Of a stretch of 386 bases of DNA, positions 1-386 are shown in pieces. The stretch is from Escherichia coli. GTDB taxonomy: Bacteria; Pseudomonadota; Gammaproteobacteria; Enterobacterales; Enterobacteriaceae. Location of the stretch: assembly GCF_003334355.1 (NCBI RefSeq), contig NZ_QOWP01000110.1, one strand, 5' to 3'. The position numbers were made by a program, and so were the translations under genes. Position 1 is the first letter of the stretch. The number at the start of each line of letters is the position of its first letter. The notes under the pieces were generated by a model that worked only from the letters and a program-made list of their open reading frames with translations, had not been told where the DNA came from and ran no database searches.

Positions 1-35
1 ATGCTTCCATCGGAAACGATGATCTGGCAGCCTGA
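1..35 (+). CDS. 3' end (last 10 codons plus stop) of an IS3-family orfB transposase, IS629-like; partial, 5' end outside the window
   Basis: Frame with codons starting at position 3 reads A-S-I-G-N-D-D-L-A-A-stop (TGA 33-35); positions 1-2 complete a codon begun outside the window. The stop lies about 40 bp inside the element terminus, as expected for orfB of IS3-family elements. Only 10 codons are visible, so the call depends on the adjacent inverted repeat and on recollection of the IS629 transposase C-terminus. Confidence 0.45.
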   Translation, partial: ASIGNDDLAA

Positions 36-52
36 GTTCACAGATAAAACAC

Positions 53-77
53 TCTCCAGGAAACCCGGGGCGGTTCA
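53..77 (+). repeat. Terminal inverted repeat (right end) of the IS629-like element, about 25 bp; inner boundary approximate
   Basis: + strand 53-77 is tctccaggaaacccggggcggttca; its complement TGAACCGCCCCGGGTTTCCTGGAGA starts with the IS3-family TG dinucleotide and contains the CCCGGG palindrome at 64-69. The 25-bp length is from memory of IS629-type repeats; the other end is not in the window for comparison. Confidence 0.45.
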
Positions 78-216
78 CTTTTCGCCAGTCCTGTAATTCC
101 ATACTTAGATGTCCGTCTATATCAGATGGGCGTCTAAGTTACCAATTCTCGTCTGATGGCTACATACGGCGGTCAGTTTACGCTTACGTGTCAAGAGGGA
201 TTTCTCAGCCCCTCAC
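78..216. other. 139-bp spacer between the two IS ends; no recognisable gene or RNA; probably a remnant of the original insertion target
   Basis: Bounded by the IS629-like terminus (…GGTTCA, 77) and the IS2-like terminus (TGGATTT…, 217). No ORF with a credible start and ribosome-binding site lies wholly inside it. It contains the near-repeat AGATGTCCGTCTA / AGATGGGCGTCTA and a small hairpin at 195-214. Confidence 0.5.
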
Positions 217-257
217 TGGATTTCCCCCTATATTTCCAGACACCTGTTATCACTTAA
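217..257 (-). repeat. IS2-like right inverted repeat (IRR), 41 bp; the outer terminus is at position 217
   Basis: Terminal TGG at 217-219 gives …CCA-3' on the transposase-sense strand, the IS3-family CA-3' end. The repeat contains the orfB stop codon at 228-230. Two positions, 224 and 243, differ from the canonical IRR as recalled. Confidence 0.7.
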
Positions 258-386
258 CCCATTACTGGCCCGCTGCCGTAGATATTCCCGTGGCGAGCGA
301 TAACCCAGTGCACTATGCGGATGCCATTCGTTATAATGCTCGAACGCCTCTGCAAGGTTCTTTGCTGCCGTTAACCCGTCTGGTTT
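228..386 (-). CDS. insD: C-terminal 52 codons plus stop of the IS2 orfB transposase (DDE/integrase-core protein); partial, N-terminus outside the window
   Basis: - strand translation from 386 down to 228: [52 protein letters not shown], with stop TAG (+ strand cta at 228-230). The …[18 protein letters not shown]… segment is the conserved C-terminal motif of IS3-family integrase-core transposases and matches the IS2 InsD C-terminus as I recall it, except Ser for Cys at the codon on + 264-266. Confidence 0.8.

Follow-up and report, generated by a model that had tools for sequence, protein, structure and literature searches.

The transposition of IS2 has been described as a two-step process, in which a figure-of-eight is made first and then a double-stranded minicircle whose abutted ends attack the target (Lewis et al. 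2012, PMC3299598). In that description the target is "non-specifically bound" at the catalytic centres of the second synaptic complex, the only possible influence on the choice of target that is proposed is intrinsic curvature, and hairpins are never mentioned (PMC3299598). The same work gives the length of the IS2 right inverted repeat (IRR), 41 bp, and its footprint-defined cleavage domain of 11 bp (PMC3299598).

Other elements are tied to palindromes: the REP/BIME-targeting IS1397 and ISKpn1, both of the IS3 family, and the hairpin-dependent IS200/IS605 and IS110/IS1111 elements (REP or attC), have a fixed insertion point within palindromes that are long, stable and highly repeated. The 386-nt stretch of E. 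coli DNA analysed here, referred to as the window, has only a superficial likeness to such targets, namely an IS end beside a small palindrome. The palindrome of the window is single-copy, with a 5-bp stem, a 10-nt loop and a stability at the level of chance, and IS2 junctions show no preference for palindromes. Its G+C-rich 5-bp stem recalls a Rho-independent terminator, from which it differs by its 10-nt loop, the lack of a U-run on either strand and a stability no different from that of shuffled sequence. The likeness is closer to the junction left by a simple IS2 insertion, with which the window shares the 41-bp IRR with its TGGATTT tip, the OrfB/InsD C terminus, 96.5% identity to K-12 IS2 and an unrelated flank, as at 109 surveyed junctions, although the window copy carries a rare change at IRR position 8 (window position 224) and another at position 27 (position 243). 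It also resembles the nested clusters of decayed CP4-44/SpLE1-type islands, in which IS1203-type, ISEc23-type and IS2 elements lie in one another and in island intergenic DNA. The window is an unremarkable case of an IS2 junction within a nested IS cluster, and not a terminator, an Rfam RNA or a REP-type transposition target.

Composition of the window

The window is a mosaic of four pieces, in which parts of an IS1203-type element, an ISEc23-type element, a scrap of genomic island and an IS2 variant follow one another. The first 77 bp (1–77, + strand) are the right end of an IS1203/IS629-type element of the IS3 family, identical to the end of an annotated IS1203-family element in E. coli PSS-12 and to a partial IS1203 copy in the SpLE1 island of O157 Sakai. 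In translation, its transposase ends in ...ASIGNDDLAA with the stop codon at 33–35, and the element itself ends in ...GGGGCGGTTCA at 67–77. A terminator-like site, CCGGGTTTCCTGG followed by AGAGTGTTTT, lies on the − strand at 56–68, inside the terminal inverted repeat of this element and reading inward; a single site of this kind is within chance expectation (0.3 ± 0.4 in shuffled sequences).

Positions 78–187 (− strand) are the terminal 110 bp, the left end, of an ISEc23-type element of the IS66 family, as identified by database matches and annotation. The element begins with the IS66-family terminus GTAAGCG at 187–181 on the − strand, and BLAST matches in thousands of genomes, annotated as ISEc23 or as IS66-like TnpA, end at 187/188. 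The tnpA start codon (ATG) is at 102–100 on the − strand, and after eight tnpA codons the copy is truncated at 77/78 by the IS1203-type element. Just upstream of the tnpA start, and separate from the stem-loop discussed below, an imperfect inverted repeat with 16-nt arms occupies 103–139 (arms ACTTAGATGTCCGTCT and AGATGGGCGTCTAAGT, 5-nt spacer). Its predicted DNA fold on the + strand (−9.8 kcal/mol, z = −4.4) was equalled by none of 200 shuffles and is much stronger than that of the stem-loop; this repeat may serve IS66-family elements as an operator, as a site for transposase binding or as a structure in the 5' leader.

The right-hand 170 bp of the window (217–386, − strand) align without gaps to nt 1331–1162 of K-12 IS2A at 164 of 170 positions (96.5% identity). 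The sequence ends in ...AAATCCA-3', or TGGATTT when read on the opposite strand, and the 41-bp IRR, placed by the same alignment, covers 217–257 (− strand) with its tip at 217. The C-terminal 52 codons of OrfB/InsD are found at 386–231 on the − strand, followed by a TAG stop at 228–230, and the translation ends in ...SDNRCLEI; coding thus stops 11 nt inside the terminus, in the position that insD1 occupies in IS2A. Two bases of the IRR are changed with respect to K-12 IS2. At position 8 from the tip (224), which falls in the 11-bp cleavage domain, G is replaced by C, and at position 27 (243) T is replaced by C. The position-8 variant was seen in one of the 109 distinct junctions surveyed.

The island segment between the two insertion sequences

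Between the ISEc23-type terminus at 187 and the IS2 tip at 217 there remain 29 bp (188–216), a non-coding scrap of a CP4-44-type island that corresponds to positions 3001–3029 of L005, a copy of the island in its uninterrupted form. The earlier reading of this DNA did not include the IS66-family terminus, which lies 8 bp to the left of the stem-loop; with it in place, what IS2 has here for a "target" is a scrap of 29 bp enclosed by two insertion sequences. The 8 bp adjoining the ISEc23 terminus, GTGTCAAG (188–195), are presumed to be one copy of an IS66-family target duplication. Next to the ISEc23/ISCro1-type end, 52 distinct IS66-type junctions show a weak bias over 8 bp, in which G is favoured at position 1, A at position 5 (31 of 52), A or T at positions 6–7 and G or C at position 8. 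GTGTCAAG fits this bias in part, having G at positions 1 and 8 and A at 6–7, but C rather than A at position 5. These junctions comprise 52 different flanks, all following the same 25-nt ISEc23/ISCro1-type end. At the other side of the scrap, the 5 bp adjoining the IS2 tip, CTCAC (212–216), are the predicted IS2 target-site duplication and overlap the 3' arm of the stem; read outward as GTGAG, they fit the weak IS2 target bias at positions 1 and 5.

About 2,800 of the 5,426 complete E. coli genomes carry, at 95–100% identity and with no interruption on either side, the 380-bp island stretch that holds the scrap. It sits in a 1.1-kb non-coding region of the CP4-44-type island, whose neighbouring genes include one of the inovirus-Gp2 family, zinc-ribbon genes, an hha/ymoA-like gene and an alpA-like regulator; in PSS-12 the region adjoins yoeF-like, tmaR, yeeA and sbmC genes. 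Strain E-1246 has an intact gene of the Hha/YmoA family on the − strand, whose start lies about 100 bp from the hairpin. On that strand the inverted repeat is therefore located upstream of the hha-like start codon, by about 100 bp. The other side holds the end of a hypothetical gene, at a distance of about 180 bp. In the window both neighbouring genes are gone. The 29 bp are identical in all six island copies sampled, and the stem-loop, being present unchanged in uninterrupted copies, is pre-existing target DNA.

Positions 3039–3061 of the AR_0085 locus (L002), in a fragment of an ISKpn37 transposase that follows an ISCro1 end, match window 188–210 at 15 of 23 positions, a likeness that gave rise to BLAST extensions past the IS66 terminus. 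A relation of the scrap to the ISKpn37 transposase was considered and rejected, as no similarity was present at the protein level; the likeness is likely the product of the weak IS66 target bias and chance. The intact island also holds an unannotated, arginine- and serine-rich ORF of 107 aa with a GTG start that runs across the hairpin site (L005 2917–3240, + strand). Its plausibility is low, and the scrap was rejected as a coding remnant, this ORF matching no PHROG or NCBIfam family.

Sequence and folding of the stem-loop

An earlier note on this DNA, made from the sequence alone, had described a 5-bp GAGGG/CCCTC stem with a 10-nt loop that ends 2 bp from the IS2 tip and is not a typical intrinsic terminator, and all three points hold. 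The arms lie at 195–199 and 210–214 and enclose the loop ATTTCTCAGC (200–209), and the predicted fold of 185–225 is exactly this stem. As window 217–386 aligns to nt 1331–1162 of IS2A, the tip falls on base 217, at a distance of 2 bp from the end of the stem. An intrinsic terminator is ruled out, since the loop of 10 nt exceeds the 3–8 nt of the terminator definition used, neither strand has a T-run and the terminator scan was blank at 195–214; the 3' flanks of the stem read ACTGGATTTCC on the + strand and TTGACACGTAAG on the − strand, with no U-run in either.

The stem-loop is present in the sequence, yet it does not exceed chance. Predicted RNA folding of 185–225 gives −7.6 kcal/mol for the + strand and −9.7 kcal/mol for the − strand, which gains one G-U pair, and DNA folding gives −3.5 kcal/mol for both strands; the corresponding z-scores are +0.27, −0.22, −0.18 and −0.03 (RNA and DNA, both strands). 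Between 76 and 118 of 200 dinucleotide shuffles folded as well as or better than the native segment, so that its stability is the same as that of shuffled sequence. The bare 20-mer (195–214) gives z = −0.8 to −1.7 (RNA and DNA, both strands), and in neither the 20-mer nor 185–225 is the palindrome markedly more stable than its composition predicts. When hairpins were counted as perfect stems of at least 5 bp with loops of 3–12 nt and compared with 500 dinucleotide shuffles, the whole window held two, fewer than the shuffles (3.4 ± 2.3), and 19.5% of the shuffled versions of the 29-nt segment (188–216) held an equal stem. A stem at chance level, inside a 29-base island leftover between two insertion sequences, is ordinary.

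No Rfam family matched the window or 6.4 kb of uninterrupted island at E ≤ 1. Scans of the window and of the 1.1-kb intergenic region of the intact island found no promoter-like sites. A TTGACA directly past the stem (194–189, − strand) was considered as a promoter element and rejected, as no acceptable −10 sequence lies at a distance of 16–18 nt in either the window or the intact island. The 7-mer GGATTTC occurs twice, inside the hairpin at 198–204 and again at 218–224, where it forms positions 2–8 of the tip of this IS2 variant.

Hairpins at IS2 and IS66-type junctions

Right-end IS2 junctions were collected from IMG/VR contigs (prophage and viral), that is, from genomes other than that of the window, and yielded 109 distinct flanks. 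In 11% of these, the 30 nt next to the tip contained a stem of at least 5 bp, compared to 15% of 641 control windows taken 100–350 nt further out, and the DNA fold energies of junctions and controls did not differ (Mann-Whitney p = 0.46). Perfect 5-bp duplications, diverse in sequence, flank 45 of 55 complete IS2 copies. Among 45 sites reconstructed in their empty state, 31% had a hairpin in the central 45 nt, compared to 25% of controls (Fisher p = 0.36; MFE p = 0.44). The only target signal seen for IS2 was a weak bias in the 5-bp duplication, with T rare (9/109) next to the IRR and A rare (9/109) at the fifth base. Targeting near sequence resembling the inverted repeat, in the manner of IS911, was also considered and rejected: flanks sharing a 6-mer with the IRR tip made up 6.4% of near and 9.0% of far sequences, with no enrichment. 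At the 52 distinct ISEc23/ISCro1-type junctions, hairpins were present in 13% compared to 12% of controls.

Hairpins are not enriched at the 109 IS2 junctions, the 45 empty sites or the 52 IS66-type junctions, and the IS2 insertion sites of other genomes show no excess of structure comparable to that of the window. By chance alone, about one flank in seven should have a small palindrome next to the IS end, and neither IS2 nor ISEc23-type elements show a preference for such structures in more than 150 independent junctions.

Interpretation of the stem-loop

The hairpin is not a real functional feature. With little doubt, it is a chance 5-bp inverted repeat in ordinary duplex target DNA, with no role in transposition or transcription, and the window around it is a nested IS junction in a decayed island of the CP4-44 type. 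The earlier note had allowed for the hairpin being either incidental or a feature of the target site; folding at the level of shuffled sequence and the lack of enrichment at junctions speak for the former, and the stem does lie in target DNA that was there beforehand. In the proposed course of events, an ISEc23-type element would have entered the island intergenic region, leaving the terminus that is now at 187, and an IS1203-type element would then have cut this copy at 77/78. The IS2 variant would have entered the duplex DNA of the island to the right of the older ISEc23 end, at a distance of 29 bp, its tip coming to lie at 217. It would presumably have done so by the copy-out/paste-in route, by way of a figure-of-eight and a double-stranded minicircle to a staggered attack on the duplex target and a 5-bp duplication, predicted to be CTCAC. 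The 20-nt inverted repeat would have been a bystander in the 29 bp left between the IS ends. The order of these insertions, the two target duplications and the arrival of this IS2 copy by simple insertion, as opposed to an adjacent deletion, are inferred.

Two observations can be set against a chance origin, namely the invariance of the 29 bp, which would be expected of a functional element as well, and the outer helix found around the stem when the uninterrupted island is folded. Both would suit a functional cis element of the island that was severed by the two insertions, such as part of the upstream region or 5' leader of the hha/ymoA-like gene, or an RNA-stabilising hairpin ending the preceding − strand gene, and the positions of the two flanking genes in E-1246 would accommodate either role. 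In the predicted fold of the uninterrupted island, the stem is nested in a further helix of 6–8 bp, which the window has lost, but the z-scores of folding in this intact context (−1.0, +0.64, −0.09 and −0.55) are unexceptional. The invariance of the 29 bp says nothing about function because the whole surrounding region is 95–100% identical across E. coli, and for the same reason there is no covariation in the stem to assess. As the stem also lacks a terminator pattern or T-run, the region a promoter-like site and the island an Rfam match, an element of this kind is very unlikely.

Still less credible is that IS2 or the IS66-family element was steered to this place by structured or palindromic DNA, as IS1397 and ISKpn1 are to REP palindromes. 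The ends of two different insertion sequences do lie close to this one small inverted repeat, no more than 8 bp and 2 bp away, and the DNA fold energy of the window flank (−3.5 kcal/mol) stands in the upper 6–12% of surveyed flanks, at the 6th percentile of near IS2 flanks and the 12th of controls. Against this stand the lack of enrichment in all three sets of junctions and empty sites, the diversity of the IS2 target duplications, the IS2 copy that PSS-12 carries in the same region 351 bp away at a site without this hairpin, and the published mechanism, in which the duplex target is bound non-specifically (PMC3299598). IS-dense, decaying islands gather insertions because these are tolerated there. 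We give next to no credence to the view that the stem-loop, with the outer helix seen only in uninterrupted islands, is a conserved RNA or DNA element with a cis-regulatory role that lies upstream of the hha/ymoA-like gene, or that it marks a locally distorted duplex to which both IS66-family elements and IS2 are drawn.

The reading of the stem-loop as a chance repeat removes a false lead and otherwise matters little. A nested mosaic of IS1203, ISEc23, island scrap and IS2 is the most fitting annotation of the window, and its sole use would be to serve as a strain-specific marker of rearrangement in a CP4-44-type island.

Origin of the IS2 junction and related arrangements

Window positions 1–216 are matched exactly by positions 4001–4216 of the PSS-12 locus (NZ_AP027697.1, L001), and this arrangement occurs in only that one of the 5,426 complete E. 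coli genomes. PSS-12 differs from the window in lacking the 216/217 junction of scrap and IS2. Its sequence continues for 351 further bp of island DNA and then reaches an IS2 copy in the same orientation, with its IRR facing the ISEc23 end and with a 5-bp duplication of its own. No match to the 216/217 junction itself was present among the 5,426 complete E. coli genomes, nor in plasmids, GTDB species representatives or JGI metagenome contigs.

The presence in PSS-12 of an IS2 in the same orientation, 351 bp beyond an identical 1–216, makes it conceivable that the junction of the window was made not by a fresh insertion but by an IS2-adjacent deletion of these 351 bp in a PSS-12-like ancestor, a question that is independent of the meaning of the hairpin. 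Between the IS2 of the window and the PSS-12 copy, 3 of 170 nt are different (224, 271 and 279). The window bases at 271 and 279 are common to IS2 copies at unrelated sites, two of which (L006 and L018) each show a single difference from the window. These comparisons suggest another IS2 subtype and hence an independent insertion, and CTCAC fits the usual IS2 target base bias. From these sequence comparisons an independent insertion seems the probable origin, and adjacent deletion a less likely one that still deserves some weight. The two histories predict different sequences beyond the left end of IS2: after a simple insertion, CTCAC and then TCACCGGCTCAG would be found there, and after the 351-bp deletion, island DNA from L005 3381 onward, flanked by CTCTC.

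Abutting ISEc23 and IS1203 fragments, as in the window, are also present in the SpLE1 island of O157 Sakai (L003 2528–3368). There an ISEc23 end abuts an internal IS1203 fragment, indicating that ISEc23 inserted in IS1203, the converse of the window, where IS1203 lies in ISEc23. IS1203 and ISEc23 elements repeatedly strike each other in these islands.
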